A stretch of 64,000 nt of DNA from Acidimicrobiia bacterium (GTDB lineage: Bacteria; Actinomycetota; Acidimicrobiia; Spongiisociales; ZC4RG35): the NCBI GenBank assembly GCA_040902845.1, contig JBBDWM010000024.1:25854-89853 (forward strand), given 5' to 3'. Of this stretch, positions 3,811 to 50,253 are shown piece by piece; position 1 is the first letter of the stretch, and each line of letters starts with the position of its first letter. Below the pieces are notes generated by a model, which saw nothing but the letters and a program-made list of their open reading frames with translations, made no database searches and was not told where the DNA came from. A program made the position numbers and the translations under genes.

Positions 3811-3993
3811 TTGGGTACCCCACCAGCATCGATCACCTGCGTCGAGTGTGGTGGAACAGCGCACCTCATCTCATTCCTCCCCCCCGACGAAGAGCTGGAG
3901 CCGGGTACGGCTGTCGCCTATCGGTGTGCCGAATGTCTGGATCGTTTCGACGTGGTGTGGGAAGAGGGAGACGACGATGCCTCGCCCGATTGA
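3811..3993 (+). CDS. Zinc-ribbon microprotein (two CxxC pairs), TTG start
   Basis: The 60-aa protein has CVECGG...26 aa...CAEC. It starts 1 nt after the fba stop and its C-terminus overlaps the next gene's start. Confidence 0.4.
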   Translation: MGTPPASITCVECGGTAHLISFLPPDEELEPGTAVAYRCAECLDRFDVVWEEGDDDASPD

Positions 3994-4327
3994 CGCCGAG
4001 TTGGCCAGACACCGCACCGTCGATCTCACCACCATTGGACGGCGGACACGCCAGTCGCGTCGCATCGAGATCTGGTGGTTCTACGTCGAAGGTCGCTTCT
4101 TCATCACCGGAACGCCCGGGGCCAGGGACTGGTACGCCAACTTAAACGCGGACCCCAAGGTGGTCATCCACGTAGGGGGACACGATCTACCTGCAACGGC
4201 CCACCAGGTGAAGGATGCGGAGACTCGAACCAAGGTCTTCGATTCCGCGCTGACCAGGTGGTACTCCAGCCAGGCACAACGGCAACGGTTGATCGATCAG
4301 GCCCCGATGGTGGAAATCAGGTTCTAG
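3977..4327 (+). CDS. F420H2-dependent nitroreductase-family protein (DUF385, Ddn-like split-barrel)
   Basis: An internal ATG gives a 117-aa protein, MPRPIDAELARHRTVDL...RRIEIWWFYVEGRFFITGTPGARDWYANLNADPKVVIH. The long track ORF 3770-4327 has an R-rich spurious N-terminus. Confidence 0.6.
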   Translation: MPRPIDAELARHRTVDLTTIGRRTRQSRRIEIWWFYVEGRFFITGTPGARDWYANLNADPKVVIHVGGHDLPATAHQVKDAETRTKVFDSALTRWYSSQAQRQRLIDQAPMVEIRF

Positions 4328-4392
4328 ACGGCAGCCCCGGCCGCCGCGTCGCGAGACGTTCGAAGTCGGCGTGCAATTGAGGCATTCAACTT

Positions 4393-5043
4393 GTGAGTGA
4401 GTACTCACTCAGTTATCCTCCCCCGCCCGTGACCTCCAAATCCACCAGAGCTGAGCCACTGGCTCCCGACGACCGCCGTCGCGCCATCATCGCCGCCGTC
4501 ATCCCCCTCCTCACCCAGCACGGGGCGGCGGTGACCACCAAGCAGATGGCCGAAGCGGCCGGCATCGCCGAGGGCACCATCTTCCGGGTCTTTCCCGACA
4601 AGGCGGCCTTGATCCACGAGGCGGTCAGATTCAGCATGGATCCGGCACCGGTTGAAAAGGGCCTGTCGGAGATCTCGGCTTCGGCTCCCATCAAGATCCA
4701 GTTGGCTGAAGCCGCCGACATCATCCTGGAACGCTTCGAAGGAGTCATCGCACTGATCACCGCCCTTCGCACCTCACCTTCGAGCGACTCGACCCCGCTC
4801 CCAAGTCCGCCGGCCTTCGTGGCCGAAGCGAATGCAGCCATCAACCATTCCCTGACCGAGTTGTTCGCACGACACCGCGATCTCCTGCGGATCGAGCCTT
4901 CTCGGGCAGCAGCCGCCTTTCGGGCTCTCATCTTCGCCGGCGGCCATCCGATGACGAGCCGAGGACAGAAGCTCACCGTCAGCGAGATCGTCGATGTGCT
5001 GCTCTCCGGGATCCTCGATCCGGTTGTAGAGGAGGTGATCTGA
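4393..5043 (+). CDS. TetR-family transcriptional regulator
   Basis: It has an N-terminal HTH (TTKQMAEAAGIAEGTIFRVFPDKAAL). It precedes, and is stop/start overlapped with, the ABC exporter pair. The true start may be a downstream GTG. Confidence 0.8.
   Translation: MSEYSLSYPPPPVTSKSTRAEPLAPDDRRRAIIAAVIPLLTQHGAAVTTKQMAEAAGIAEGTIFRVFPDKAALIHEAVRFSMDPAPVEKGLSEISASAPIKIQLAEAADIILERFEGVIALITALRTSPSSDSTPLPSPPAFVAEANAAINHSLTELFARHRDLLRIEPSRAAAAFRALIFAGGHPMTSRGQKLTVSEIVDVLLSGILDPVVEEVI
4394..4411. promoter_or_regulatory. 18-bp perfect palindrome TGAGTGAGTACTCACTCA at the TetR start; candidate autoregulatory operator
   Basis: It is a perfect inverted repeat overlapping the annotated GTG of the TetR gene. 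TetR regulators typically bind palindromes in their own promoter. Confidence 0.5.
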
Positions 5044-6776
5044 TGTTGCTTCGTATCGCCAGGGAGTACCTCAGGCCCTACAAGAAATGGCTGACCATCG
5101 TGGTGGTTCTCCAAGCGATTGGGACCATCGCCTCGCTGTATCTCCCAAGCCTGAATGCAGACATCATTGACAACGGCGTAGTGGCCGGAGACACCGCGTA
5201 CATAGTCCGTGTCGGTGTCGTGATGCTGGCCGTCTCGCTGCTGCAGGTGGTCTGCTCTATCACCGCCGTCTACTTCGCAGCACGCACCGCAATGAGCTTC
5301 GGTCGTGAGCTGAGGTCATCGATCTTCCATCGGGTGGCCGAATTCTCGAGTCGCGAGGTGGCCGGATTCGGGGCGCCTTCCCTCATCACTCGAAACACCA
5401 ACGACGTCCAACAAGTCCAGATGCTGGCCCTGATGACCCTCACCATGATGGTGATGGCCCCGATCATGATGGTCGGAGGCGTGATCATGGCGCTTCGCCA
5501 GGATGTCGGCCTCTCCTGGTTGGTCTTGGTTGCCGTCCCGGCCCTCGGGGTGATAGTCAGCTTCATCATTTCCCGAATGGTCCCTGCCTACCGGGTGATG
5601 CAGAAGCGCATCGACACCGTCAACCGGGTGCTGCGGGAGCAAACCTCCGGCATCCGGGTCCTCCGCGCTTTCGTCCGGGAACCGTTCGAAACCGAGAGGT
5701 TTGGACGGGCCAATCGAGAGTTAACAGACGTCTCTGTAACGGTCGGGCGTTGGATGGCCGCCATGTTCCCCGCGGTGATCCTGGTGCTGAACGTCGCATC
5801 CGTCGCGGTGCTCTGGTTCGGCGGCATCAGGGTCGACGCCGGAGTCATGGAGATCGGTTCTCTGACGGCCTTTCTGGCCTATCTGGTCCAGATCCTGATG
5901 TCGGTGATGATGGCGACCTTCATGCTGGTGATGGTGCCCAGGGCATCCGTCTCCGCCGACCGCATCGCCGAGGTGCTCGACACCGAGTCCTCTGTCGTGC
6001 CACCGGCCTCAGGTGTCACCGAGGTCAAAGGACGTGGCGAACTCGAATTGCGCGGTGTTGGGTTCAGCTATCCAGGGGCGAGCCATCCGGTACTCCACGA
6101 TGTCACATTCTCGGCCCGCCCAGGTCAGACCACCGCCATTGTCGGCTCCACGGGCGCTGGCAAGACAACCTTGATCAACCTCATCCCCCGCCTCTTCGAC
6201 ACCACCGAGGGAAGTGTCCTGGTCGATGGCGTCGATGTCCGTGAACTCGATCCCGACACGCTCTGGTCCAAGGTGGGTCTTGTTCCCCAAAAGCCATATC
6301 TCTTCTCCGGAACCGTTGCCTCGAATCTGCGCTACGGAAAACCGGCCGCAACTAAAGAGGAGATGTGGGAGGCGCTCGAGATTGCCCAGGCACGTGACTT
6401 TGTCGAGGAGATGCCAGACGGGCTCGAGGCGCCTATCTCCCAGGGTGGCACCAACGTATCTGGAGGACAACGTCAACGGCTCGCCATCGCTCGGGCGCTT
6501 ATCCGCCGTCCCGAGCTCTACCTCTTCGACGATTCCTTCTCGGCGCTCGATCTCGCCACCGACGCCCGGCTGCGACGCGCTCTGAAACCGACCACGGCCG
6601 ATGCCACCGTCGTGATCGTTGCCCAGCGGGTGTCCACCATTGCCGACGCTGACCAGATCCTCGTCCTCGAGGCTGGGGTGGTTGTTGGGCTCGGTACTCA
6701 CAACTCGCTGTTGGCGACCTGCCCGACATACATCGAGATCGTTGAGTCGCAGCTGAGGGCCGAGGTGGCCTCGTGA
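5043..6776 (+). CDS. ABC transporter permease/ATP-binding protein (type I exporter half-transporter)
   Basis: It has six TM helices followed by an NBD with Walker [10 protein letters not shown], signature [15 protein letters not shown] and Walker [13 protein letters not shown]. Confidence 0.9.
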
Positions 6777-16095: not shown

Positions 16096-16962
16096 CTAGA
16101 CGCTCACCAGCGCCTTGTCGGCGTCGGCCGAGACGAATTCTTGCGTCCTGTCCAGCCACCAAATCATCACGACGCCACCGACGCCTGCAGCGAGACCGCT
16201 CAGTTGATTCCAGGTGAATCCCCCAACCACCGCGTCCCCCATCCCGAAACGCAGGCCGTCGAGAAGGAAGCGCTGGAAGCCATACCAGGCGACCCAGATG
16301 AAGAAGAGTTGGCCGTAGTGAAGCCGGAAGCGGCGGTAGACCAAGAAGAGGACACCCAGCAGCACCGCGGCGCCGATCAGGTCGTAGAGGGCCACATGGT
16401 GATAGATCCCACAAAACCCGTCGGCACCAACCGTCGACTCGGTGCACTCCAGGCCGTTGTGCTGGGGGGCCACGTCGTAACCGGGTCGGATCCCGTAACC
16501 CCACCACGCGGTCGTCGCCCTGCCCAGATGCTCGACAATGGCAAGGTCACCGATCCTCCCTACGACGGTGCCCAGCGCCAGTCCGAACGATGATGCATCC
16601 AGTGTGGCCAGGACCGGCATCCCCAACTGACGCATCCGCCACCCACCGGCGAGGATGCCTCCCAGGAACCCACCCATGATCGAGAAGTTCCCCGCGATCG
16701 GATTCAATGCCTCGAGCAACGGGGTGTCGCCCATGATTTGAGCCGGGGCGGTGGAATAGCGGGCACCGAGCAGGGCTCCGATCAGGCCCCAGGTCAGGCA
16801 TGACTGGTACTTCACCGTGTCGAAGCCACGTTTCTTCAACTCCCGGGTGGCGATCCAGGCACCGGCCACGAACCCGAGAGCGGCAAACACCCCGTGCAGG
16901 GAGAAGTTGATCGGGCCCAGCTCCCAGATCGGGATCGGTGGATAAGTGATCACGGCAAGCAT
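16096..16962 (-). CDS. lgt: Prolipoprotein diacylglyceryl transferase
   Basis: The 288-aa multi-TM protein has the Lgt signature region GxxYxxA...GRIGDLAIVEH. Confidence 0.9.
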   Translation of the reverse strand: MLAVITYPPIPIWELGPINFSLHGVFAALGFVAGAWIATRELKKRGFDTVKYQSCLTWGLIGALLGARYSTAPAQIMGDTPLLEALNPIAGNFSIMGGFLGGILAGGWRMRQLGMPVLATLDASSFGLALGTVVGRIGDLAIVEHLGRATTAWWGYGIRPGYDVAPQHNGLECTESTVGADGFCGIYHHVALYDLIGAAVLLGVLFLVYRRFRLHYGQLFFIWVAWYGFQRFLLDGLRFGMGDAVVGGFTWNQLSGLAAGVGGVVMIWWLDRTQEFVSADADKALVSV

Positions 16963-20408: not shown

Positions 20409-20738
20409 CTATCCGTCGGCCAGGCTCAATGCGAACCGGACGTTATCCACCAACTCCCAACCGACCAATATCGGCTGGCCGCTGAGTCGATGCTCACGAA
20501 GGTGGGGGAGCGCAAATTCGTAGTCACCGTCGTCCACTGGAAGAAACAGCCACTCCTCACCCTCGACCAGCACCGAGAACGAGATCACCTGCTCCAGGCT
20601 TCCTTCGACGGAGATGACAACCCCCCGAGCGGTGCCCGAGGTTTGGGTGCAGGCCATGACCGCCACGAGCGCCACGATTCCGGTCAATCGGGCCGCGGAA
20701 TTCAGAAGGTGGCGGTCGGCGACCTTGGCCGCGGTCAA
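20409..20738 (-). CDS. Small lipoprotein (~109 aa), TTG start overlapping the ctaG stop (TTGA); hidden inside spurious track ORF 20409-21056
   Basis: In frame within the track ORF is ...(M)TAAKVADRHLLNSAARLTGIVALVAVMAC|TQTSG (a signal peptide plus lipobox), then GVVISVEGSLEQVISFSVLVEGEEWLFLPVDDGDYEFALPHLREHRL.... GC3 is about 80%, against about 61% for the competing plus-strand ORF 20367-20894. Confidence 0.45.
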   Translation of the reverse strand: MTAAKVADRHLLNSAARLTGIVALVAVMACTQTSGTARGVVISVEGSLEQVISFSVLVEGEEWLFLPVDDGDYEFALPHLREHRLSGQPILVGWELVDNVRFALSLADG

Positions 20739-21544
20739 CCCGCCCTCAGCGACGATTCCAACCTCTCCCAGTCCCGCTCCTGCTTGGTCCAGCGGAACCA
20801 GATCACCGCAATGGTCCCCCACAACAAAAATCCTCCTCCCAGCTTCATGATGACGCCGGCGATCGTCTGGTCGGCCACCGCGGTGAGGCCGTAGGCGAGG
20901 GCAGCGTCGCCATAGACCGGGTAGATCGGGACCGAGGAAAAGGTGAGAAACGAAGCCGGGACGGTAGGAAGCAGGGACTGGAGGAACAGATAGAGCATCT
21001 GGGCGGGCGGGGTAAGACGCGGGATCGCCGCGGTAGGCGAGAAGATCGGGAGCCACATGAGGATCGCCGCACCGAACAGCCAGGCGTGGACAAAGAAATG
21101 AATCGACCGACTGGTCAGCATCCAGCCCACCAGTTCGGGCCAGTGGATCAGGATAAACGTGGCGTTGAAGATGACGAACGCCGCCACCGGTCGTGCCAGG
21201 GGCCGCAACAGTCGCGCCACCTTCGGGTGTCCGAATGTGGCGTCACCCAGCCAGCGCGGACAGCCCCGAAGCAGCAAAGGCGGCACCACCAGGGCAAGGA
21301 CCATGTGCTCGATCATGTGCAGGGTGAACAAGGCAGTCTCCCCGATGTCGTGGATCGGCCACCCGGAGACCACCAAGAGCAGAGCGAGGGCCCCATACCA
21401 CTGCCAGCGCTGGCCCGCCGTCGCCCGGGGCGCTTCGGGGGCCATCAGCGGCCGGAGACGCTTGTCGGCGTACCAGTACCCGAAACCGAGGACGAAGACC
21501 AACAGCCACAGGTCGAAGTGTGGGTGCCAGGGAGGCAACGGCAT
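20735..21544 (-). CDS. ctaG: Cytochrome c oxidase caa3-type assembly factor CtaG (Caa3_CtaG family)
   Basis: The 269-aa multi-TM protein has the HMIEHMVLALVVPPLLL motif. Confidence 0.75.
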   Translation of the reverse strand: MPLPPWHPHFDLWLLVFVLGFGYWYADKRLRPLMAPEAPRATAGQRWQWYGALALLLVVSGWPIHDIGETALFTLHMIEHMVLALVVPPLLLRGCPRWLGDATFGHPKVARLLRPLARPVAAFVIFNATFILIHWPELVGWMLTSRSIHFFVHAWLFGAAILMWLPIFSPTAAIPRLTPPAQMLYLFLQSLLPTVPASFLTFSSVPIYPVYGDAALAYGLTAVADQTIAGVIMKLGGGFLLWGTIAVIWFRWTKQERDWERLESSLRAG

Positions 21545-21852
21545 CAGGATCCCCTGATGACCAGGACTCCCAGGGCGGCCAGGACCACGGTGTAGAGAGA
21601 AGCGGCCAGCACGAAGCCGCCGGTGAAGAAGCGGCTCAGGGTCGACTTCTCGTACCGGAGATGCATATAGAAGGCCACGACGATCACGAACTTCAGCGTG
21701 GCCAGGATGATGAGTGAGATGGCGTTCAGGGCGCCCAAGTCGTAGGACTTGTTCACGTAGTACATACCCACCTCGATGGCGGTGAGTACCCCCAACAGCA
21801 CCGCGATCTTCCAGTATTGGGCCGGTGTCGGGTGGTGATGCTCCGCGGTCAT
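21544..21852 (-). CDS. Cytochrome c oxidase subunit IV (prokaryotic CoxIV)
   Basis: The 102-aa protein has two TM helices and sits immediately downstream of ctaE. Confidence 0.7.
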   Translation of the reverse strand: MTAEHHHPTPAQYWKIAVLLGVLTAIEVGMYYVNKSYDLGALNAISLIILATLKFVIVVAFYMHLRYEKSTLSRFFTGGFVLAASLYTVVLAALGVLVIRGS

Positions 21853-22478
21853 GCGGGCGGCACCGACAACAGATAGACGACGGTGAAGATGACGATCCAG
21901 ATGATGTCGACGAAGTGCCAGTAGAGGCCGACCAGTTCGAGGTTCATCCCGTGTTTCTCACTGAGCCCACCCGGACGTCGTGAGATGCCCCACAGGGAGA
22001 GAAGCATGATCACACCGATCGCCACATGGGTGCCGTGAAACCCGGTGAGGACATAGAAGGCGGAGGCCGCCGGGTTGGTGGTGAGCTTCATGTCGTTGTT
22101 GACGATGAATTCGGTGAACTCGAAGACCTGGCCGCCGAGGAACACCGCGCCCAGGGCCGCAGTGGCGAACAACCAGGTCCTGGTCCCGTTGATGTCGGCT
22201 CGCGTCAGGGCGTTGTGGGCGAGGACCATCGTCAACGAGCTCATCAACAGGACGAACGAACTGACCGAAGTGAATGGTATGTCGTAGATCTCGGAGGGAT
22301 AGGTGCCGGCAAATCCCGCCCGGTTCGAATACAGCAGGTAGTTCGAGATCAGGGCGCCGAAGAACAGGAACTCCGAGCTGAGGAACAGCCACATCCCGAG
22401 TTTGCGGTTGTCGACACCTGTCGACTCGCGTTCGGGATGATCCAATGGAGCCTCGTGGAGGATCTCAGCCATAGCCAC
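21849..22478 (-). CDS. ctaE: Cytochrome c oxidase subunit III
   Basis: The 209-aa protein reads GMWLFLSSEFLFFGALI ... LYWHFVDIIWIVIF. Confidence 0.9.
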   Translation of the reverse strand: MAMAEILHEAPLDHPERESTGVDNRKLGMWLFLSSEFLFFGALISNYLLYSNRAGFAGTYPSEIYDIPFTSVSSFVLLMSSLTMVLAHNALTRADINGTRTWLFATAALGAVFLGGQVFEFTEFIVNNDMKLTTNPAASAFYVLTGFHGTHVAIGVIMLLSLWGISRRPGGLSEKHGMNLELVGLYWHFVDIIWIVIFTVVYLLSVPPA

Positions 22479-24507
22479 CCTCGTGCTTGTCAGAGTGCTC
22501 CCCGTCGTCGTGTTGGACGAGATGCGGTTCCTCGAGCGGCTCGATCGCCCACCCGACCACCGAGATGAGGCCGATGATGACGCCGACGAAGATCATGGCC
22601 TTGCCCCAGAGTGCCTCGTGGTAGATGATCCCGTAGAAGATGGTCGGGAAAGCGGTGGCCATGAAAAAGGGGAAATATGAGGGATTGGGGAGGTGGATCG
22701 GCGAGGCCGGGTTGAGCTGATCATGCTCGATCTTGGCCACGATCTCATCCGCATCCGGCTTGCGCACCGCCCGCCCATCCGGGTCTTCGTCGTACTTGAG
22801 ATGCCAGAAATGGTCGAGACGGGTAACCACCGGGGGCACCGCGAAGTTGTACTCGGGCGTGGGGTTGGGACTCATCCACTCAACGGTCCTCGCGTCCCAT
22901 GGGTCGAGGCCGGAGAGCTGGCCGCGGCGCTTGCTGGTGACCCAGTTGACGATGAAGATCGCAATGGAGAGGGCGATGATGAAGGCACCCACGGTCACCG
23001 CCAGGTTCCACGGCTCGAGACCGGTCTCCGGTGCGTACTTCCAGGTTCGACGAACCATCCCCTGAAGACCCAACCAGTGCATTGGGGCGAAGGTGAGATT
23101 GAACCCGAGCAACTGGAGCCAGAAATGGGTCTTGCCCAGTTTCTCGTTCATCACCCTCCCGGTGAGCTTGGGGAACCAGTAATAGAGGCCGCCGAAGAGC
23201 CCGAAGATGGCGCCGCCGAACAGCACATAATGGAAGTGGGCCACGATGTAATAGGTGTCTGTCTGCTGCCAGTCCGAGGGGACGACGGCGTGGGTCACCC
23301 CGGAGAGCCCGCCGATGGTGAACATGGCCAAAAACCCGATGGCGAACAGCATCGAGGTGTTGAGCCGTATTCGACCCATCCACATCGTCCCCAGCCAGTT
23401 GAAGATCTTGATCCCGGTGGGAATGGCGATGGTCATCGTCGACAGGCCGAAAGCCGCCTGGGCCACCGGGGTGATTCCCGAGGCGAACATGTGATGGGCC
23501 CACACCCCGAAGCCGAGGAAACCGATGGCGGCGCCGGCAAAGACCACCGCCGAATAGCCGAAGAGGGGTTTGCGCGAGAAGGTGGGGAGGATCTCGGAAA
23601 CCATCCCCATCGCAGGCAGGACCAGGATGTAGACCTCGGGGTGGCCGAACAACCAGAACAGGTGTTGCCACAGAATTGGATCTCCCCCGCCAACGGGGGC
23701 GAAGAACAACGACCCGAACTGACGGTCGAACGTCACCATGAACAGCGCTACCGCGATGATCGGGATTGAGAACAGCAGAAGGAACGCCACAACCATCGAC
23801 ATCCAGACAAACACCGGCATTCGGAGCAGGCGCATCCCCTTGGCCCGCAGGTTGAGGATGGTGACGATGAAGTTGACCGCAGAGACCAAGGAGGCAAGGC
23901 CCAGGATCTGCACCCCCAACGCCCAGTAGTCCATAGCGGTGCCCGGCGAGTAGAGCGGCCCGGCGTTGGGCTGGTAGCCGAACCATCCCCCGTCAGGTGA
24001 GTTGGCAAGGAAGTTGAAGCTGCCGGGTCCTCCCCCGAGAGCCAGGTTGCCGTCGACACCTCCGATGCCATCGACCCCGACCGGGGCCAGAGAGGTGCCG
24101 AAGATGAAGGTCGAATAGAGGAAGATCCCGCCGAAGAGGAAGACCCACCAGGAGAGGGCGTTCAACCTGGGGAAGGCAACGTCCCGCGCTCCGATCATCA
24201 GCGGGAGCAGGTAATTCATGAATGCAGCCCCGGTCGGCATCACGAAGAGAAAGATCATCGTGGTGCCATGCATGGTGAACAGGGCGTTGTAGGCGCCGGC
24301 GGTGAGGAACTCGCTGTTGGCCTGGGCAAGTTGGATCCGAAGCAGCAAGGCCTCGACACCGCCGATGATGAAGAAGGTGAAGGCCGCGTAGCCGTACATG
24401 ATGCCGATCCGCTTGTGATCGACGGTCGTTATCCACGACCAGATACCGGTCTTCGCCGATGGACGGCGAAAGATGGTGGTCTGCGGTCGCTCGGCGGTGG
24501 CGGTCAT
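22465..24507 (-). CDS. ctaD: Cytochrome c oxidase subunit I, with a ~100-aa C-terminal extension carrying two extra TM helices
   Basis: It has GHPEVYILVLPAMG and the conserved heme/CuB histidines. The 680-aa length is about 100 aa longer than a typical CtaD. Confidence 0.9.
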   Translation of the reverse strand: MTATAERPQTTIFRRPSAKTGIWSWITTVDHKRIGIMYGYAAFTFFIIGGVEALLLRIQLAQANSEFLTAGAYNALFTMHGTTMIFLFVMPTGAAFMNYLLPLMIGARDVAFPRLNALSWWVFLFGGIFLYSTFIFGTSLAPVGVDGIGGVDGNLALGGGPGSFNFLANSPDGGWFGYQPNAGPLYSPGTAMDYWALGVQILGLASLVSAVNFIVTILNLRAKGMRLLRMPVFVWMSMVVAFLLLFSIPIIAVALFMVTFDRQFGSLFFAPVGGGDPILWQHLFWLFGHPEVYILVLPAMGMVSEILPTFSRKPLFGYSAVVFAGAAIGFLGFGVWAHHMFASGITPVAQAAFGLSTMTIAIPTGIKIFNWLGTMWMGRIRLNTSMLFAIGFLAMFTIGGLSGVTHAVVPSDWQQTDTYYIVAHFHYVLFGGAIFGLFGGLYYWFPKLTGRVMNEKLGKTHFWLQLLGFNLTFAPMHWLGLQGMVRRTWKYAPETGLEPWNLAVTVGAFIIALSIAIFIVNWVTSKRRGQLSGLDPWDARTVEWMSPNPTPEYNFAVPPVVTRLDHFWHLKYDEDPDGRAVRKPDADEIVAKIEHDQLNPASPIHLPNPSYFPFFMATAFPTIFYGIIYHEALWGKAMIFVGVIIGLISVVGWAIEPLEEPHLVQHDDGEHSDKHEGGYG

Positions 24508-25559
24508 TCGTTGCTCTCCAACCAGATGATCAGATCGTCGATCTCCTGAGCGGTTAGGGCCAGGTTGGGCATGAAGCTACCGGGTTTCACCGAGGGTGGA
24601 TCCGCCAGCCACTCCTTGAGCGCCCCCTCCCGGGTCTCGCCCTCACCGGGCAGGGTGGCTCCGGCAAACACGTTGCGTGAGGCGAAATGGGTGAGCTCGG
24701 GACCGGAGAAGGCGTCGTCGGGAACGATGTTGGGATTGGTGTCAAAACGCACGGTGTGACACTGGATGCATCCCTTGGCCAGGTACACCTGATAGCCGGC
24801 GTACTCGGGACTGCCTTCGGTGGGGAGCGGGGTCGTATCGGCCTGATCGGCCAGCCACCCCTCGTACTCCGCCGGGGGCAGCGCGAGCACCCGGGCCCGC
24901 ATCAACGAGTGGGAGAGGCCACAGAACTCGGCGCACTGACCCCAGAACTCCCCTGGCTCGTCTGCTTGGAGCCGCAACTGGGTGGTCTGGCCCGGAATCA
25001 GATAGCGCTTCCCGTTGAGGGCCGGAACCCAGAAGTTGTGGATCACATCCTCGGACGTCATGTTGGCGCAGACCTCCTGGCCCGCCGGAATCACCATCAC
25101 GTTGGCCGTCGCCACCCCGGCTTCGGGGTAGCGGTACTCGAACCACCATTGATGCCCGATCACCTCGATCTCGATCGCGCCCTCACCGCACTCGGTCAGA
25201 TCGAAGACGGCCGCCGTGGTTGGGACTGCAATCCCGGCCAGGATCAAGGCGGGGATCACTGTCCACAGCACCTCGAGTTTCGGGCTTCCATGAAGCTGCT
25301 TAGCCTCCTTGGCGCCCTCCCGGTCCCGATAGAGAAAGACGGCGACCAGGATCGCCCCCTGGACGAGGATGAAGACCGCGGTTGCGATCCAGAAAACCGG
25401 CCAGAACAGCTCGTCTTCGCGACGGGAGAAAGGCCCCTTCGGGTCCAGCGCCGTCATCGGGGCATCCTCGATACCGATCAGCGAACAGGCGCTGAGAACC
25501 ATGGCGGCCCCGACCAAAATGCCGAGGCGTGCAAGACGTTGACGGGACGGGGCCATCGG
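24504..25559 (-). CDS. ctaC: Cytochrome c oxidase subunit II with fused C-terminal cytochrome c domain (caa3-type)
   Basis: It has the CuA site HNFWVPALNGK...CAEFCGLSHSLM and a C-terminal CIQCH heme-c motif. The likely start is MAPSRQRLARLGILVGAAMVLSAC. The track's upstream 40 aa come from the palindromic repeat. Confidence 0.85.
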   Translation of the reverse strand, partial: PMAPSRQRLARLGILVGAAMVLSACSLIGIEDAPMTALDPKGPFSRREDELFWPVFWIATAVFILVQGAILVAVFLYRDREGAKEAKQLHGSPKLEVLWTVIPALILAGIAVPTTAAVFDLTECGEGAIEIEVIGHQWWFEYRYPEAGVATANVMVIPAGQEVCANMTSEDVIHNFWVPALNGKRYLIPGQTTQLRLQADEPGEFWGQCAEFCGLSHSLMRARVLALPPAEYEGWLADQADTTPLPTEGSPEYAGYQVYLAKGCIQCHTVRFDTNPNIVPDDAFSGPELTHFASRNVFAGATLPGEGETREGALKEWLADPPSVKPGSFMPNLALTAQEIDDLIIWLESNE

Positions 25560-25631
25560 TTCGGCATCATACGGACCTCGCCAACGAGCGACCAACTTCT
25601 GAGCTGTGCCCAGAATTCCGGGGTGAGGCCC

Positions 25632-25686
25632 CCCGTAATTGAGACACAGAGGGGTCACATGCGGACCTGAGGGTCCCAATTACGGG
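25632..25686. repeat. 55-bp palindromic element, copy B (reverse orientation, ~85% identical to 11836-11890), inside the cta operon between the lipoprotein stop and the ctaC start
   Basis: It reads CCCGTAATTGAGACACAGAGGGGTCACATGCGGACCTGAGGGTCCCAATTACGGG. Its reverse complement aligns base-for-base with copy A, with an imperfect stem. Confidence 0.7.
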
Positions 25687-25695
25687 AAGGACCCC

Positions 25696-26529
25696 TCAGG
25701 GGGCCACTGCGTCGATCGCCGAGCTCAGTTCCTCGTCACGGACAGCTCCCTCGAAGGAGGCGGTGACGGTCCCGGAACTGTCGACTACGAACACCCAGGG
25801 CTCCGAGGGCAGACCCCATTCACTGACCGCCGGCACCGCGGTCAACTGGCTCTGGTCGGTCACGGTGAGGTCCTCGTAGATCTCGACGTGGATGAAAGCG
25901 ACGCCGGGGTAGCTCTCGCGGAGGTTCTTGACCTGATCCAGAATGGGCCCACAGGTTGCACTCGCGCAGAACCCCGGGGTGGCGAAAACGATCACCACAG
26001 GATCCCCGCTCATCACCGCTTGGGCGACAGACACTTCGTACATCGCCGGGTCGGGGTCAGGATCCGAGCTGATCTCTGCGAGGTCGGGGTAATCGGCCGA
26101 AATCCGGGTCTCCGAGGCCGGGGCAGTGTCACCGCGCTCGATGACACCAGGATCGTCGACCGCCACCAACCCCATCGGGCCCGCGGTGTCGAATCCCTCG
26201 GCGTCGAGCGTCACCTGGTAGGTGGCTGCCTCGGGGATCATCATCCGGGCCACATAGAGACCTCTGACGTCTTCGACGGTCCACATGAACTCGGTCGGAT
26301 AGGTCTCGATGGGGGCGCCGTTTTGGTCACGAAGGGTGACCGTGGCTGGGTGATCGGGGGAGGCCAGATACTCGTTGGTCTCCTGGTCGATCAACGCGAA
26401 CATGATTCGCTGCTCGCCCACCCCAATGCCGGCTTGCGAGGAAGCGATGATGGCAAACGGAGTCACCGCCTCTGAGGAGCAGGCCCCTACGACAAGTAGC
26501 ACGCCAGCCAGGACCAGGCCACGTCTCAT
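25696..26529 (-). CDS. Lipoprotein with C-terminal thioredoxin-like domain (atypical CxxxxCGP motif); possible CuA/oxidase maturation factor (TlpA/Sco-like)
   Basis: It has the signal peptide plus lipobox MRRGLVLAGVLLVVGAC|SS and the C-terminal stretch VVIVFATPGFCASATCGPILDQ...PWVFVVDSSGTV. It overlaps the ctaB stop by 4 nt and sits directly upstream of ctaC. Confidence 0.55.
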   Translation of the reverse strand: MRRGLVLAGVLLVVGACSSEAVTPFAIIASSQAGIGVGEQRIMFALIDQETNEYLASPDHPATVTLRDQNGAPIETYPTEFMWTVEDVRGLYVARMMIPEAATYQVTLDAEGFDTAGPMGLVAVDDPGVIERGDTAPASETRISADYPDLAEISSDPDPDPAMYEVSVAQAVMSGDPVVIVFATPGFCASATCGPILDQVKNLRESYPGVAFIHVEIYEDLTVTDQSQLTAVPAVSEWGLPSEPWVFVVDSSGTVTASFEGAVRDEELSSAIDAVAP

Positions 26530-27449
26530 CGGATCAGCACGTCCAGCATCACCGAAGCGAATAGCGCAGCGAGATACACCGTCGATGTGGTGAAAAGACG
26601 CATGGCCTCATCCGGGTGGAGATAGACCCTCCAGCAGTCCCAAAGAAACCATGCGCCGAGGCCGATTGCGGCCAGCAGGTAGATCCAGCTCATCCCGGCC
26701 ACCGGAACCAGGAGCAGGGTGACGCCGACCATCACGGCCGTGTAGAGGAGCATCTTCCTTGTCGTTGCCTCCACCCCAACGACCACCGGGAGCATCGGGA
26801 TCCCGGCCCGGGCATAGTCCTCCCGATAGCGGATGGCCAGGGCCCAGAAATGAGGGGGGGTCCAGTAGAACACGATGAAGAACAGAACCCAAGCCGGCAA
26901 GGCGACCCCACCCGTGATCGCCGCCCAACCGACCAATACCGGAGCCGCCCCGGCTGCTCCCCCGATGACGATGTTCTGAGTCGTCGACCGTTTCAGCGCC
27001 ACCGTGTAGACGAACACATAGAAGAGAAGTGCTGCCGTTGAGATGGCGGCGGCCAGCAGGTTGGTTGTGACCCAGAGCCATGCGAACCCTGCGATGCCGA
27101 GGCAAATGCCGAAGACGAGGGCGTTGGTCGGGGCCACCTCGTGTTGGGCCAGCGGCCGACCTTTGGTGCGTCGCATCACCGCGTCGATGTCACGATCGAA
27201 GTAGCTGTTCAGCGCGTTGGCGCCGCCTGCAGACAGTGTGCCCCCGATCAGGGTGGTGATCAGGATCCATGCTCCCGGCCAGGTCCCGGCCGCCAGCACC
27301 ATCGCAGGCACCGTGGTGATGAGGAGCAATTCGATGATGCGGGGCTTGGTCAGCGCCAGGTAAGCCATGACAGTCGACCGGGTGCGTTGGGCGGGCACCG
27401 ACATGACGACGTCAGGTGTGACCGGCGATCCTGGAAGATCAGTCGACAT
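26526..27449 (-). CDS. ctaB: Protoheme IX farnesyltransferase (heme O synthase)
   Basis: The 307-aa UbiA-family protein reads NSYFDRDIDAVMRRTKGRPL ... WTPPHFWALA. Confidence 0.9.
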   Translation of the reverse strand: MSTDLPGSPVTPDVVMSVPAQRTRSTVMAYLALTKPRIIELLLITTVPAMVLAAGTWPGAWILITTLIGGTLSAGGANALNSYFDRDIDAVMRRTKGRPLAQHEVAPTNALVFGICLGIAGFAWLWVTTNLLAAAISTAALLFYVFVYTVALKRSTTQNIVIGGAAGAAPVLVGWAAITGGVALPAWVLFFIVFYWTPPHFWALAIRYREDYARAGIPMLPVVVGVEATTRKMLLYTAVMVGVTLLLVPVAGMSWIYLLAAIGLGAWFLWDCWRVYLHPDEAMRLFTTSTVYLAALFASVMLDVLIR

Positions 27450-27609
27450 CGGTCGGCTCCTGGATCGAGTCTTCCTTCAGTTTTCTTTCTTCGGCCGCTC
27501 TCCGCGCACGGCGCTCCGCCCAGCGCAACGAGAAGATCGCGGCAAGCGCCGGGATCACAAAGATCCCAACTTCATCGATCCCCCAATAGTGGGCAAATAT
27601 GAGCATCAT
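27439..27609 (-). CDS. 56-aa single-TM microprotein between the membrane protein and ctaB (ATGA-coupled upstream, overlaps the ctaB start by 11 nt)
   Basis: It reads MMLIFAHYWGIDEVGIFVIPALAAIFSLRWAERRARRAAEERKLKEDSIQEPTDVD, with one TM helix plus a basic/acidic tail. It forms the tail of the otherwise R-rich spurious track ORF 27439-28485. Confidence 0.4.
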   Translation of the reverse strand: MMLIFAHYWGIDEVGIFVIPALAAIFSLRWAERRARRAAEERKLKEDSIQEPTDVD

Positions 27610-28964
27610 CCGGAAAGGATCAACAACCCGAGTGTGGTGAGAGCCACCATAAGGAGAAGCATCGCGTATTGGGAACGGACCGCGCCCGGTCCGAAGTCTC
27701 CAAGAGCGCGGTCGTGGGCCAGCACCACACCTGTCACATGCCCGGTCACGATCACAGCCATCTGCACGTACCAGATGGGCTCGCTGGTAGTGATGAAGAA
27801 GTCCACCTTGCGGTCGGCTGTCCCGAACAGGTCCCATCCCAGGGCGAAGGGATCGGAAACGGCCGCGATCAACTGCTGGCCCTCGAAAATGATCAAGGTG
27901 AGGTAGTGGGCCACCGCGTAGGCAAGGGCGATTGGAACCAGGGTGTGGGCGAAGCGGGCTGAAACGCGGCGAGCGGTCCAGTCGCCGCCCACCATCCGTG
28001 CCGCCGCCCACGAGGCAACCCAATAAGCAAGACCGATCATTGCGACCGATCCCAACAGAAGGAGGGTCGCTCCCAGCATCGAGTCCGCCATCGCACCGAA
28101 AGCAGACTTGAACCAGGCCGTGCCCGAGGCGCCGTCGTAGGTCACGGTTCCGATCGCCACGCAAACCAAGGCCGCCAGACCGCGCCATTCGGGCAAGACC
28201 GTCAACGCCCGGAGCCAGCCGCGCCACACCAACCGACCGTCCGTACGACGACCCAAGGGTGACAGCGAAGAGATCAACCGGTTGTACGGGGTGAAGGCAT
28301 CGAACACGGTCAAGCCCGTCTCCCGACCGGCGTAAGCCATGGCCGCGAATAGACCGACTGTGTAGACCAGGGCCGCCAATCCGAGAGCTACGGCTGATCC
28401 CGAGCTGTGATTGACCAGCTCCAACCAGGTGAAGGCGAGGAGCAGTGCCGCGGCTGGGAGGACACCGGTGGCATCGAGCAGCCACACCCGCTCGGCCTTA
28501 CCGACTTTGAAGGTGCGCCCCATGGTCCGCCAGGGATTGAGATCGGTGTACCAGTCACCGAGGACCGCGCCAACAAACGGCACCACCAGCCAAAAGACCA
28601 CCCACAACAAGACCGGGGCGATGGAGGGACGAGTGGGATCAGTCGTCAGACCGAAGGCCGCCACCGCTAGTTGCCCGATGACCAGCAGAAGACCGATCAC
28701 TCCCAACACCGGAAGCAGGCCCCTGCGAGGAATGGTCAACCGTGTCGGGTTGTGGCGGGGCCCATCCTGGAGCCTTGGCTCGGGCCAAAGGACCGCAAGG
28801 GCAACGAAGCTGACGACGATGACGACCCCGGCCGCGGCGATAAAGTAGGACACGGGGACCGGCAGGTCGAGACGCCCTCCGATTCCGTGTGCCAGGGCCG
28901 TCCCCGAGTTGAGAAAGACAAGGAGCAAGGCCCCGCCGACAATGCCGGCGCGACGTCTCATCAA
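27606..28964 (-). CDS. Integral membrane protein of unknown function (cleavable-signal-like N-terminus ...TALA|HGIGG, then ~10 TM helices) in the cta/heme operon
   Basis: The 452-aa protein is strongly hydrophobic. It is ATGA-coupled to the upstream lipoprotein and to the downstream microprotein. It does not match CtaA (no Cys pair). Confidence 0.55.
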   Translation of the reverse strand: MMRRRAGIVGGALLLVFLNSGTALAHGIGGRLDLPVPVSYFIAAAGVVIVVSFVALAVLWPEPRLQDGPRHNPTRLTIPRRGLLPVLGVIGLLLVIGQLAVAAFGLTTDPTRPSIAPVLLWVVFWLVVPFVGAVLGDWYTDLNPWRTMGRTFKVGKAERVWLLDATGVLPAAALLLAFTWLELVNHSSGSAVALGLAALVYTVGLFAAMAYAGRETGLTVFDAFTPYNRLISSLSPLGRRTDGRLVWRGWLRALTVLPEWRGLAALVCVAIGTVTYDGASGTAWFKSAFGAMADSMLGATLLLLGSVAMIGLAYWVASWAAARMVGGDWTARRVSARFAHTLVPIALAYAVAHYLTLIIFEGQQLIAAVSDPFALGWDLFGTADRKVDFFITTSEPIWYVQMAVIVTGHVTGVVLAHDRALGDFGPGAVRSQYAMLLLMVALTTLGLLILSG

Positions 28965-29395
28965 GGAGTTACTTGGATCTCGAACAACGGGAGCTGGCTC
29001 TCCTCGAGTTCGACTTCGAAGATGCCCTGAGCATCCGCCTCGAAAGAGATCTCGACCGGGACGCCGGGCTCGGCCTCGTACATGACGTCGTATCCGTGGA
29101 CATGGATCTCGTCGGCGACATCGGTGAGCACCGTGATCTCCACCTGATCGCCAAGTGCGTATTCGAAGAGATCCGGGCCGTCGACCACGCCACCGGCCAC
29201 GGTGACATCGATCTCACGGGTAGTCGTTGTGATCTCAGGAACGCTCGACGGGGGCGCGACCTCGGTGCTGGTGGTCCCGGCGAGCGTCGTGGTCGTGGCG
29301 GGGGTCGATGAGGCTTCAGTGGTAGACGTGCTGGAGGTGTTGTTGCAGGCGGCAATCAGTACCGCTATCAACCCGATCAGGAGCACGGTTCGCAT
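28961..29395 (-). CDS. Lipoprotein with Ser/Thr-rich linker and a C-terminal beta-rich domain (HxH motif; possible metal-binding)
   Basis: It has a lipobox (MRTVLLIGLIAVLIAAC|NN), a TSSTSTTEASSTPATTTT linker, and the domain ...VADEIHVHGYDVMYEAEPGVPVEISFEADAQGIFEVELE. Confidence 0.55.
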   Translation of the reverse strand: MRTVLLIGLIAVLIAACNNTSSTSTTEASSTPATTTTLAGTTSTEVAPPSSVPEITTTTREIDVTVAGGVVDGPDLFEYALGDQVEITVLTDVADEIHVHGYDVMYEAEPGVPVEISFEADAQGIFEVELEESQLPLFEIQVTP

Positions 29396-47494: not shown

Positions 47495-48061
47495 TCAGGA
47501 TTCGTCCAGACCGGGGAGAGTGCCGAGGATCGAAGCACGGCACGCTTCCGCGGCCGCTGCCAACTCCGGGTCCCCATATGGGATCTCCGCCACCGCGAAG
47601 GGGGCGCCGACTCCGGCGAATCCGGGCACCGGATCGGGGAAATCCTCGACACCGTTGGCCCGCATGCACCGGCTGAAATCGCTGAGTTGCTCGTTGATCT
47701 CCTGGCGCAACTGGTCTTCGGTGCCAAGGTCGAGCGCCCCGGTGTTCAAGCTCGCCGAGCAAACGGCAAGCGCCTCGGCCACCTCAGGATCCCCGAAGTC
47801 GACGGAAATGATCACCAGATCAAGCCGGGGGCGCCCGGTGGCATCTAAGGGCACTTCCTCGATGACAACGTCGTGCTCTCCAAGACATATCCGGAATGCC
47901 TCGACCGCAGCCCCGGTGGTGGTGGTAATGGTGGTCGAGGTGGTGGTTGGCGCAGTGGTCGAGGTCGACAGCGAGTCGGTGCCCGACGGGCCCTCGAGGT
48001 CGGGTGTGCACGCGGCTCCCACCACGAACAAGGCCAACAGGGCGGCGAGACGTCGAATCAG
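47495..48061 (-). CDS. Lipoprotein with Thr-rich linker and four Cys (start uncertain; non-ATG CTG/ATT abutting the upstream stop)
   Basis: It reads ...[18 protein letters not shown]|TPDLEG, followed by a [16 protein letters not shown] linker and a domain with two Cys pairs. The track ORF's first about 80 aa overlap the upstream Fe-S gene and are R-rich. Confidence 0.5.
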
Positions 48062-50253
48062 AAGGCTCCGGGCTCTGAGGGCCCCACCCCTTCGGCGAGG
48101 ATCATCGCGAGATCCCTGACCTTCACGTCCGCCCTGCCCAATTCCTTGACCCCATCGTCGAGCATGACAAAGCAGAACGGGCAGGCCACGGCGATCTCGT
48201 CGGCCCCGGTGGCAAGAGCCTCCTCCGCCCTCTCGATGTTGACTTTCTTGCCGGTCTGCTCCTCCATCCAGAAACGGGCTCCGCCGGCGCCGCAACACAG
48301 GGCCCGGGTGCCGTGACGGGGCATCTCGACCACCTCGATGTCACCCGAGGCGCCGAGGACGTTCCTGGGCGCCAGATAGATGTCGTTGTGCCGTCCCAGA
48401 TAGCAGGGGTCGTGATAGGCGATCTTCTTGGGTTGGCCGTTCTCCTTGGTCGGGACCGAGAGTCGCCCCTGGCCCAGCAACTCGGCGAGAAGCTGGCTGT
48501 GATGCACCACCTCGTAGTCACCACCGAATTGCGGATATTCGTTGGCGATGGTGTTGAAGCAATGGGCGCACTGGGTGATCACCTTGGTGACGCCGATCTC
48601 GTCAAAGGTTGCGATGTTCTGCAGGGCCAATTGCTGGAAGACGAATTCGTTGCCAGCCCTCCGGGCCGGGTCGCCGCTGCAGAGCTCGGCCCGCCCCAGG
48701 ATGGCGAAGTCGATCCCGGCCTTGTTGAGCAGTCTGGCGAGAGCGACCGAGACGGCGGTGTTTCTGTCGTCGAAGGAACCGGCACAACCCACGAACCAGA
48801 GATAGTCCGCGGTGGTCTTGCCGTTCTCCCCGAAGATCGGCACCTCGAAGTCGAGCTCCTCGGTCCAGGCGGCCCGGCTCTGCTGGCTCATTCCCCAAGG
48901 GTTGGACTGGTTCTCCATGGCTACGAACGCCTTGCCCAGCTCGATCGGGAACTCCGATTCCATCATCGTGAGATAGCGGCGCATGTCGAGGATGCGGTCG
49001 ACGATCTCGATGTTCACCGGGCAAATCTCGTCACAGGCCCGGCAGGTGGTGCAGGCGAAGACCTCTTCGGGGCGCACCCGGTCGAAGAGCGAGTGGTCAC
49101 CTTCCAGCACCATGATCGACGACAACGGTGGGCTGACCCCGGCGGCGGCGGCAGCCACCTCTCCCGTTTTGAGAACGATCTCCCTCGGGTCGAGTGGCTT
49201 GCCGGTGATGTTCGCCGGGCACACGGAGGTGCATCTCCCGCACACGGTGCAGGCGTCGGTGTCGAAGATCTGCTTCCAGGTGAGATCGGCGGCCAGCGAA
49301 GCGCCGATGGTGTCGATGTCGTCGGTCTCGAGGAGATTGGGCATCTCCCGCATCGCACCCTTGGGCCGGGGGTGTGCGGAGAGGAACAGATTTGCCGGAG
49401 AGGTGACCATGTGCCGGAGCTTGGTCACCGGCAGGATCACTAGGAACCCGATGAACGCAAGCACATGGCTGATCCAGAAGATCCGATGCAAGTCGCTCGC
49501 GTTGGTCTCCGGGATCAGAACCGACAGCGGATGGCCTACGAACGACCACACCTCGAAGTCGGGTCTTCCGGCAAGGGAGATCCGGGCGGCTTCGGTGAGC
49601 AGACCGCTGAGCCCCAACACCACCAGGAGCCCCAGGATCAGAGCGTCCTCAGGCTTGGTCTTGGTCCTGAGTCGCTCACTCTGCACCAGGTAACGGTTGA
49701 CGATGGCGAGCGCCAGACCTCCGAGATACGCGAGAGAGGCCAGGTCGAGGATCGCCGAGTAGCCCTGATAGACCGGTCCCTGGAGGAACTTCAGATTGCC
49801 GGGGAGAAGGTGATCGATCTCGAGGGTGACCGTCCCCAGGAAGAGGATGATGAACCCGTAGTAGATGAGGGAATGCATCACACCGGCCCGCGGGTCGCGC
49901 ATCAGGGTCTTCATGCGCAGACCGGAGTCGAAGTCCCTCAGACGGCGCCCCCACATCCCGAGTCTCGATTCGGGCCGACCCCTCTCCCAGGCCGTCGCCC
50001 TTCGGGCCAGCAGATGGAGCGACGTCCAAATGAAGACGGCGACCGTCACGTAGAAGACCAACTGCACCGAGTCGGGGATGTTGCCGAACACCTCCCGTCC
50101 GATCTCGAAGTGGGGCTCCTCGGGGAGGGTCCCCAGCAGACCGAGGGCCAGGGTGGCCAACGCGCCCGCCACCCCGAATCCTTCTATGACATAGGAAACG
50201 GGTGGCCGCCTGGAGGTCGTGATCTCGTCCTGACGCTCCTGGGTGAGGGCCAT
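48058..50253 (-). CDS. Membrane-anchored (Fe-S)-binding oxidoreductase, HdrD/GlcF-like with CCG domains (Rv0338c-like)
   Basis: It has an N-terminal 5-6 TM domain, two 4Fe-4S motifs (CTVCGRCTSVCP and CTTCRACDEICP), and two cysteine-rich CCG regions (including LCCGAGG). Confidence 0.8.
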   Translation of the reverse strand: MALTQERQDEITTSRRPPVSYVIEGFGVAGALATLALGLLGTLPEEPHFEIGREVFGNIPDSVQLVFYVTVAVFIWTSLHLLARRATAWERGRPESRLGMWGRRLRDFDSGLRMKTLMRDPRAGVMHSLIYYGFIILFLGTVTLEIDHLLPGNLKFLQGPVYQGYSAILDLASLAYLGGLALAIVNRYLVQSERLRTKTKPEDALILGLLVVLGLSGLLTEAARISLAGRPDFEVWSFVGHPLSVLIPETNASDLHRIFWISHVLAFIGFLVILPVTKLRHMVTSPANLFLSAHPRPKGAMREMPNLLETDDIDTIGASLAADLTWKQIFDTDACTVCGRCTSVCPANITGKPLDPREIVLKTGEVAAAAAGVSPPLSSIMVLEGDHSLFDRVRPEEVFACTTCRACDEICPVNIEIVDRILDMRRYLTMMESEFPIELGKAFVAMENQSNPWGMSQQSRAAWTEELDFEVPIFGENGKTTADYLWFVGCAGSFDDRNTAVSVALARLLNKAGIDFAILGRAELCSGDPARRAGNEFVFQQLALQNIATFDEIGVTKVITQCAHCFNTIANEYPQFGGDYEVVHHSQLLAELLGQGRLSVPTKENGQPKKIAYHDPCYLGRHNDIYLAPRNVLGASGDIEVVEMPRHGTRALCCGAGGARFWMEEQTGKKVNIERAEEALATGADEIAVACPFCFVMLDDGVKELGRADVKVRDLAMILAEGVGPSEPGAF

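Follow-up and report, generated by a model that had tools for sequence, protein, structure and literature searches.

A two-domain lipoprotein from an Acidimicrobiia cytochrome oxidase operon represents a widespread family with a YtkA-like domain and a Cx4C-G-P motif on a thioredoxin fold

A 64-kb stretch of an Acidimicrobiia bacterium contig (JBBDWM010000024.1; hereafter the window, that is, the whole stretch of DNA analysed, in which all positions are counted unless another locus is named) encodes, between ctaB and ctaC of a caa3-type cytochrome oxidase operon, a lipoprotein that belongs to a large uncharacterised family. The family is best described as a variant of the thioredoxin-fold oxidase assembly factors in which the Cx4C-G-P/His centre is shifted and a YtkA-like domain is fused on. 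We tentatively favour a role for this lipoprotein as a Sco-analogous, copper-handling maturation factor for the CuA site of CtaC that uses Cys188, Cys193 and His214. The assembly of CuA is known in only a few model bacteria, via Sco, PCuAC, TlpA and CtaK; that the machinery varies from phylum to phylum is a point emphasised in reviews.

The open reading frame (ORF) at 25696..26529 on the minus strand, which a first-pass annotation made from the sequence had described as a lipoprotein gene wedged between ctaB and ctaC, is a real gene. The GC content of its three codon positions (0.65/0.47/0.79) is like that of ctaB, ctaC and ctaD; the ORF antisense to it has the mirror-image values, a shadow-frame pattern; and a 100% identical protein is present at NCBI as 'MAG: thioredoxin family protein [Acidimicrobiia bacterium]'. 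The ATG start overlaps the ctaB stop as ATGA (26526..26529), in agreement with the coupling noted at first sight, and the identity of ctaB as a heme o synthase gene is borne out by NF003349 (E 1e-119). The gene was also correctly placed directly upstream of the CuA subunit gene, the next ORF encoding COX2 and cytochrome c domains of a caa3-type CtaC. Both peptides quoted in that annotation were located in the gene, FATPGFCASATCGP at 25945..25986 and WGLPSEPWVFVVD at 25780..25818. Conservation was followed in two alignments, one of 119 diverse representatives (29-64% identity) and one of 138 further homologues, 257 sequences together. The cysteine of the predicted lipobox, VGAC17, is kept in 116/119 and 138/138 of them, and the extracytoplasmic, lipid-anchored nature of the protein can be regarded as established.

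The first-pass annotation had regarded the protein as possibly specific to this caa3 system; it belongs instead to a very large family, widely conserved far beyond chance. One search returned 1756 homologues at E<=1e-3; an exhaustive hidden Markov model (HMM) search over 50%-identity representatives found 2022 clusters at the same threshold and 1349 at E<=1e-10; and a scan of one genome per species, with relatives confirmed, placed the family in at least 597 species genomes. The names of its members in databases vary among thioredoxin family, TlpA family, FixH family and hypothetical protein, no NCBIfam or other curated model covers them, and our literature searches found no paper describing the family.

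The family shares the consensus F-[AS]-T-P-x-[FY]-C-x-[ST]-x-x-C-G-P; it is found in 146 of the 150 best representatives, and the four sequences without it are N-terminal fragments. In the window's protein the central part reads C188-A-S-A-T-C193-G-P195, the CxxxxCGP motif by which the gene was first noticed; the cysteines are separated by four residues (A-S-A-T), as this formula implies, and not by the five that were also mentioned. P185, C188 and C193 are the sole invariant columns among the 119 representatives and are likewise invariant in the 138 homologues, and the lipobox Cys, G38, R41, H214, E216, W238, E243, P244, F247, G253, E260 and E267 are conserved at 90% or above. Besides Met1 and the lipobox Cys, only three columns have a high share of His, Met or Cys, namely C188, C193 and H214, and between residues 18 and 176 no column of either alignment reaches 40% His+Met+Cys. 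H214, the family's only conserved His and the sole His after C193 (there is none between residues 215 and 277), fits the expectation that a histidine would be found downstream of the cysteines: it is His in 110/119 and Asn in 9/119 representatives, and His in 138/138 homologues. E216 is kept in 118/119 and 138/138, and E243-P244 in 114-116/119 and 138/138. Residues H214 and E216 are candidates for a third ligand or for a proton-relay pair.

The fold was predicted with AlphaFold2 (AF2) from the 138 sequences (predicted local distance difference test, pLDDT, 92.6; predicted template modelling score, pTM, 0.87); an earlier model from 38 close homologues, with a pLDDT of 60.7, was discarded. In this model and in structure searches, a thioredoxin fold of the type seen in TlpA, ResA and DsbE is recovered for the C-terminal half, as had been surmised: the core is b-a-b-a-b-b-a, the active site falls where b1 meets a1, and a cis-Pro loop precedes b3. 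The best structural matches of this domain include ResA and CcmG, and the E243-P244 segment aligns to the cis-Pro region of Thermus thermophilus 3ia1, CcmG 1kng and Bacillus subtilis ResA. C188 is modelled within a ten-residue loop after b1, and C193-G-P opens the helix 193-204. The canonical active-site end of the thioredoxin fold is formed by the C-terminal ends of the strands, the N-terminus of helix 1 and the loop that precedes b3. Because C188, C193, H214/E216 and E243-P244 all sit at the C-terminal ends of b1 or b2, at the helix-1 N-terminus or in the pre-b3 loop, the fold topology predicts that they cluster at this end of the sheet. Both a thioredoxin-like fold and cysteines conserved in orthologues, on which the initial proposal depended, were found.

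The same proposal had suggested a TlpA/Sco type of CuA maturation factor. Its fold and its linkage to oxidase genes agree with this, but membership by sequence in either TlpA or Sco does not hold: Pfam and NCBIfam searches, which had been suggested as a check, gave no match to the lipoprotein at E<=1, including Thioredoxin_8, AhpC-TSA, Redoxin and the dsbE/ResA models. Among the relatives, dsbE is touched by 9/119 only (E>=5e-5), Redoxin by 5/138, and Thioredoxin_2 is matched by 55/138 near or below threshold; SCO1-SenC (PF02630) has no match in the lipoprotein or in the 138 relatives. The motif is indeed neither that of TlpA nor that of Sco, since no CxxC occurs in the lipoprotein or in any of the 257 homologues and CxxxCP was not encountered.

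With the CuA copper chaperones of the Sco/SenC family (B. subtilis YpmQ, Bradyrhizobium ScoI), the lipoprotein shares a membrane-tethered extracytoplasmic thioredoxin fold, two conserved cysteines (one shortly ahead of helix 1, the other at its beginning), one conserved His, and genetic linkage to cytochrome oxidase genes. Sco proteins have CxxxCP, and thioredoxins have a CxxC whose second Cys is within the helix; the family has Cx4C-G-P throughout. The Sco His is in a hairpin about 85-90 residues downstream, whereas that of the family is on b2, 21 residues beyond the second Cys; furthermore, the family retains the cis-Pro loop and has an additional immunoglobulin (Ig) domain. A comparison by hhalign with B. 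subtilis Sco (a single sequence) gave no meaningful alignment, and one with a single ResA sequence aligned the cis-Pro region only, so the residue-level equivalence of the cysteines to those of ResA or Sco is drawn from the AF2 secondary structure. We favour a Sco-like role because C188, C193 and H214 are the only conserved His/Met/Cys set, a Cys2His combination like the Sco ligands, and because a loop Cys followed by a helix-capping Cys and Pro, as modelled, would resemble Sco more than the CxxC of thioredoxin.

Likeness to TlpA, ResA and DsbE (CcmG) is structural and extends to the cis-Pro loop. In place of their W-C-x-x-C, however, the lipoprotein has F-C-A-S-A-T-C-G-P, with the cysteines shifted to a loop position and a helix cap. 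A role as a TlpA-like extracytoplasmic reductase, which would carry no copper but cycle between a Cys188/Cys193 dithiol and a Cx4C disulfide to hold CtaC's CuA-site cysteines, and perhaps further assembly factors, in the reduced state, seems nearly as likely as the Sco-like one. Its structural neighbours are reductases, the cis-Pro loop and conserved acids are in place, and the His214-to-Asn variants would be accommodated. Conversely, the CxxC that defines such reductases is absent in every member, no CcdA/DsbD-type electron supplier is encoded in the neighbourhoods examined, and domain fusions to CopC and YtkA-like modules, described below, point to metal handling over pure redox chemistry.

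The motif also invites comparison with BCP/PrxQ, the atypical 2-Cys peroxiredoxins, which are defined by PxxxTxxC and by a catalytic Arg that precedes the counterpart of strand b3. We rejected a peroxiredoxin identity: the lipoprotein, encoded in an oxidase operon, has P185-x-x-C188 and S190-x-x-C193, and E243-P244 stands where the catalytic Arg would be. The family has only the fold-level features of TlpA, Sco and peroxiredoxins and lacks those that define each of them.

Forty percent of the protein is taken up by an N-terminal YtkA/FixH-like Ig domain that had been overlooked in the first-pass annotation. Its beta sandwich (residues 24-123) matches filamin-type Ig domains in Foldseek, and its profile matches PDB 9ll2, a 'copper resistance protein' (E 4e-5). 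With a best E of 7.5e-7, Pfam YtkA (PF13115) is matched by 18/20 isolated N-terminal domains and by 54/138 full-length homologues, in the latter near or below threshold; the lipoprotein's own N-terminal domain scores 14.3 bits (E 0.065), under the cut-off of 25.9, and the full-length protein is unmatched. Three representatives have an extra N-terminal CopC domain, of the Cu(II)-binding kind (E 1e-16 to 1e-18), which favours a copper role. These three-domain relatives (P0215, P0242 and P0256; CopC, YtkA-like and thioredoxin-like) are about 505-530 aa (amino acids) long; at the locus of one CopC-fused relative (L091 6001..7593) the neighbours, an ABC-transport auxiliary protein and a Mg-chelatase-like AAA/VWA protein, are uninformative.

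In B. subtilis, the YtkA family lipoprotein CtaK acts with the thioredoxin-fold protein Sco in CuA assembly (PMC9145763, PMC13344008), and His/Met residues of CtaK, for example His118, are proposed copper ligands (PMC9145763). With CtaK (YtkA), and with the YtkA domain of YcnJ, the present family has in common its lipoprotein nature, its YtkA/FixH-like Ig domain and its caa3 oxidase linkage. Unlike CtaK, it has no conserved His/Met in the Ig domain, which is fused to a thioredoxin-fold domain. That one chain joins YtkA-like and thioredoxin-fold domains, which are separate in Bacillus as CtaK and Sco, is a further reason for favouring the Sco-like role.

Gene order was compared by tblastn over the 80 best species loci. 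ctaC is directly downstream of the family gene in 45 of these by a strict count, with two more in which the alignments overlap, and is divergent from it in another two; 19 more, mostly from Chloroflexota, have no cta neighbour other than a ctaB that is transcribed divergently. Overall, 68/80 loci are cta-linked, through ctaC or through ctaB or a fused ctaA-ctaB; six have no cta gene within 6 kb, and in six one flank is too short for full classification. The fusion is exemplified by Chloroflexota locus L075, where a 615-aa protein with COX15-CtaA and UbiA domains (3937..5784, minus strand) is encoded divergently from the family gene; apparently similar long ctaB-containing ORFs occur in sister Chloroflexota loci. 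Relatives at 38-41% identity are also found inside cox clusters. The comparison with other genomes that the first-pass annotation had recommended thus shows the linkage kept across Acidimicrobiia and Chloroflexota, and co-inheritance of the family with A-type oxidase genes across two phyla, despite gene-order rearrangements, is established. We count the cta linkage of 68/80 loci, extending to relatives at 38-41% identity, in favour of the Sco-like role, and likewise the composition of the operon, which has Caa3_CtaG, while neither the operon nor the rest of the window encodes a Sco-like CxxxCP protein, PCuAC or a CxxC thioredoxin-like lipoprotein. No CcdA/DsbD, Sco or CopD gene is found beside any member examined, other neighbours being unrelated housekeeping genes.

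All 52 complete adjacent ctaC genes encode both the CuA motif and CxxCH. The latter, like the presence of ResA and CcmG among the best structural matches, would fit a ResA/CcsX-like protein that reduces the CxxCH cysteines of the CtaC cytochrome c domain for heme c attachment. We consider this improbable: the family has no CxxC, no ResB, ResC or CcdA genes are nearby in the loci examined, the Chloroflexota neighbour is ctaA-ctaB with no cytochrome c gene, and the CopC fusions argue for copper.

We assign a similarly low probability to the possibility that the protein is in the cta operon only incidentally and has a general envelope thiol function, for example as a thioredoxin-fold lipoprotein that is peroxiredoxin-like or linked to stress. 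Its Cx4C-G spacing is reminiscent of BCP/PrxQ, the weak Redoxin matches and the loci without cta genes mentioned above would agree with it, and so would a distant subfamily (31-36% identity) whose genes are found directly upstream of mfd, away from any oxidase genes (L086, L087, L089 and L090; gene at 7001 onward). At L086, genes for an ArsR-type regulator and MerB are just upstream. Against an incidental position stand the absence of the peroxiredoxin Arg and PxxxTxxC, with E243-P244 instead, the cta linkage in two phyla through gene-order rearrangements, and the translational coupling to ctaB.

If the Sco-analogous reading is correct, the lipid-anchored protein would be made together with the caa3 oxidase subunits and act on the outer face of the membrane. 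Its reactive centre would consist of the loop Cys188 and the helix-capping Cys193, surrounded by His214/Glu216 and Glu243-Pro244; the reduced thiols and His214 would bind copper transiently before handing it over to CtaC at its reduced Cys-x3-Cys CuA site, where disulfide exchange might also take place. The Ig domain could serve as a docking or hand-over module, as CtaK does beside Sco in Bacillus. Both the binding of copper by the lipoprotein and its target are what we infer from these comparisons. Several observations weigh against this reading: the cis-Pro loop typical of oxidoreductases is retained; Asn at position 214 in 9/119 representatives is easier to reconcile with hydrogen bonding than with a ligand function; the presumed copper-binding His/Met residues of CtaK are missing from the Ig domain; and the mfd-linked subfamily lies apart from oxidase genes. 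In a bolder version, which we regard as rather doubtful, the family would comprise single-chain CuA metallochaperones built from a CtaK-type Ig domain and a Sco-analogous thioredoxin-fold module whose Cys-x4-Cys/His copper site evolved independently; in Acidimicrobiia, Chloroflexota and further lineages that are largely uncultured, they would stand in for a separate Sco and perhaps also for TlpA/PCuAC.

Although the gene is of an ordinary kind, its family is large, lacks a model and can be tested directly. With about 2,000 clusters at 50% identity in at least 597 species, it is abundant yet inconsistently named, and it sits in oxidase operons of Actinomycetota and Chloroflexota that are environmentally dominant and for the most part uncultured. 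A role in CuA assembly, if true, would fill a gap in respiratory-chain biogenesis in these two phyla, would give Sco a counterpart for comparison, a second thioredoxin-fold Cys2His site with an independent arrangement, and would make consistent annotation of the family possible.

Table 1. Features of the lipoprotein gene and of the surrounding operon, numbered along the window.
Feature	Coordinates	Strand	Basis
Two-domain lipoprotein gene, 277 aa	25696..26529	(-)	ORF; third-codon-position GC 0.79, like neighbours; homologues
Signal peptide and lipobox MRRGLVLAGVLLVVGAC17, Cys17 the predicted lipidation site	26479..26529	(-)	Sequence; C17 conservation
N-terminal Ig-like beta sandwich, YtkA/FixH-like, residues ~22-125	26155..26466	(-)	AF2 strands 24-123; Foldseek; Pfam YtkA in homologues
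Conserved linker and N-terminal extension of the thioredoxin domain, residues 126-176	26002..26154	(-)	Alignments; AF2; G133, P137, D156, P159 and Y164 conserved
Thioredoxin-fold core, residues 177-277	25699..26001	(-)	AF2: b1 178-182, a1 193-204, b2 211-215, a2 233-238, b3 245-249, b4 254-260, a3 265-273
Active-site motif F182-A-T-P-G-F-C188-A-S-A-T-C193-G-P195	25945..25986	(-)	Alignments; AF2 model
H214-V-E216, C-terminal end of b2	25882..25890	(-)	Conservation
E243-P244, cis-Pro loop position directly before b3	25798..25803	(-)	Conservation; structural alignment
144-aa lipoprotein, operon head	28961..29395	(-)	ORF; start/stop overlap
452-aa polytopic membrane protein	27606..28964	(-)	ORF; start/stop overlap
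56-aa ORF, one transmembrane segment	27439..27609	(-)	Overlaps stop of membrane-protein gene and start of ctaB
ctaB, heme o synthase, translationally coupled to the lipoprotein gene	26526..27449	(-)	NF003349 E 1e-119; UbiA E 6e-66
ctaC, caa3-type subunit II	24504..25679	(-)	COX2, COX2_TM, Cytochrom_C; CuA motif CAEFC...H..M; heme c CIQCH
ctaD	22465..24507	(-)	ORF; COX1 in syntenic loci
ctaE	21849..22478	(-)	ORF; COX3 in syntenic loci
ctaF	21544..21852	(-)	ORF; COX4_pro in syntenic loci
Caa3_CtaG	20735..21544	(-)	Caa3_CtaG E 2e-42

The operon comprises ten genes on the same strand, most of whose starts and stops overlap, in the order 144-aa lipoprotein, 452-aa membrane protein, 56-aa ORF, ctaB, 277-aa lipoprotein, ctaC, ctaD, ctaE, ctaF and Caa3_CtaG (Table 1). 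The true start of CtaC is probably at 25556, with a lipobox of its own (LSAC). The three genes upstream of ctaB (27439..29395) are co-located in about 12 close relatives and are possibly part of the same module for assembly or copper supply.

The 144-aa lipoprotein's C-terminal part, about 80 residues that include IHVHGYD, weakly matches the cupredoxin domains of two-domain laccases (E 0.009-0.06) and, also weakly, the CuA region of NosZ; this lipoprotein may be a copper-binding partner, a candidate suggested by these similarities. The 452-aa membrane protein, in which a signal peptide is followed by HGIGG, matched no Pfam or NCBIfam family; it has 2823 homologues, some of them named 'fenitrothion hydrolase' at NCBI. 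Genes for these two proteins occur together upstream of ctaB in the same set of about 12 close relatives, and a gene for 56-61 aa is called at the place equivalent to the 56-aa ORF in loci L001 and L003.

About 4 kb beyond the operon lies an Lgt gene (16096..16962, minus strand), and in about nine related loci Lgt adjoins a divergent ctaB (for example, L025 3980..4888). Elsewhere in the window, an ORF at 48058..50253 on the minus strand encodes a 731-aa protein that combines a NarI-like membrane domain with two 4Fe-4S motifs and a pair of CCG domains, putatively an HdrD/DsrK-like membrane iron-sulfur oxidoreductase.
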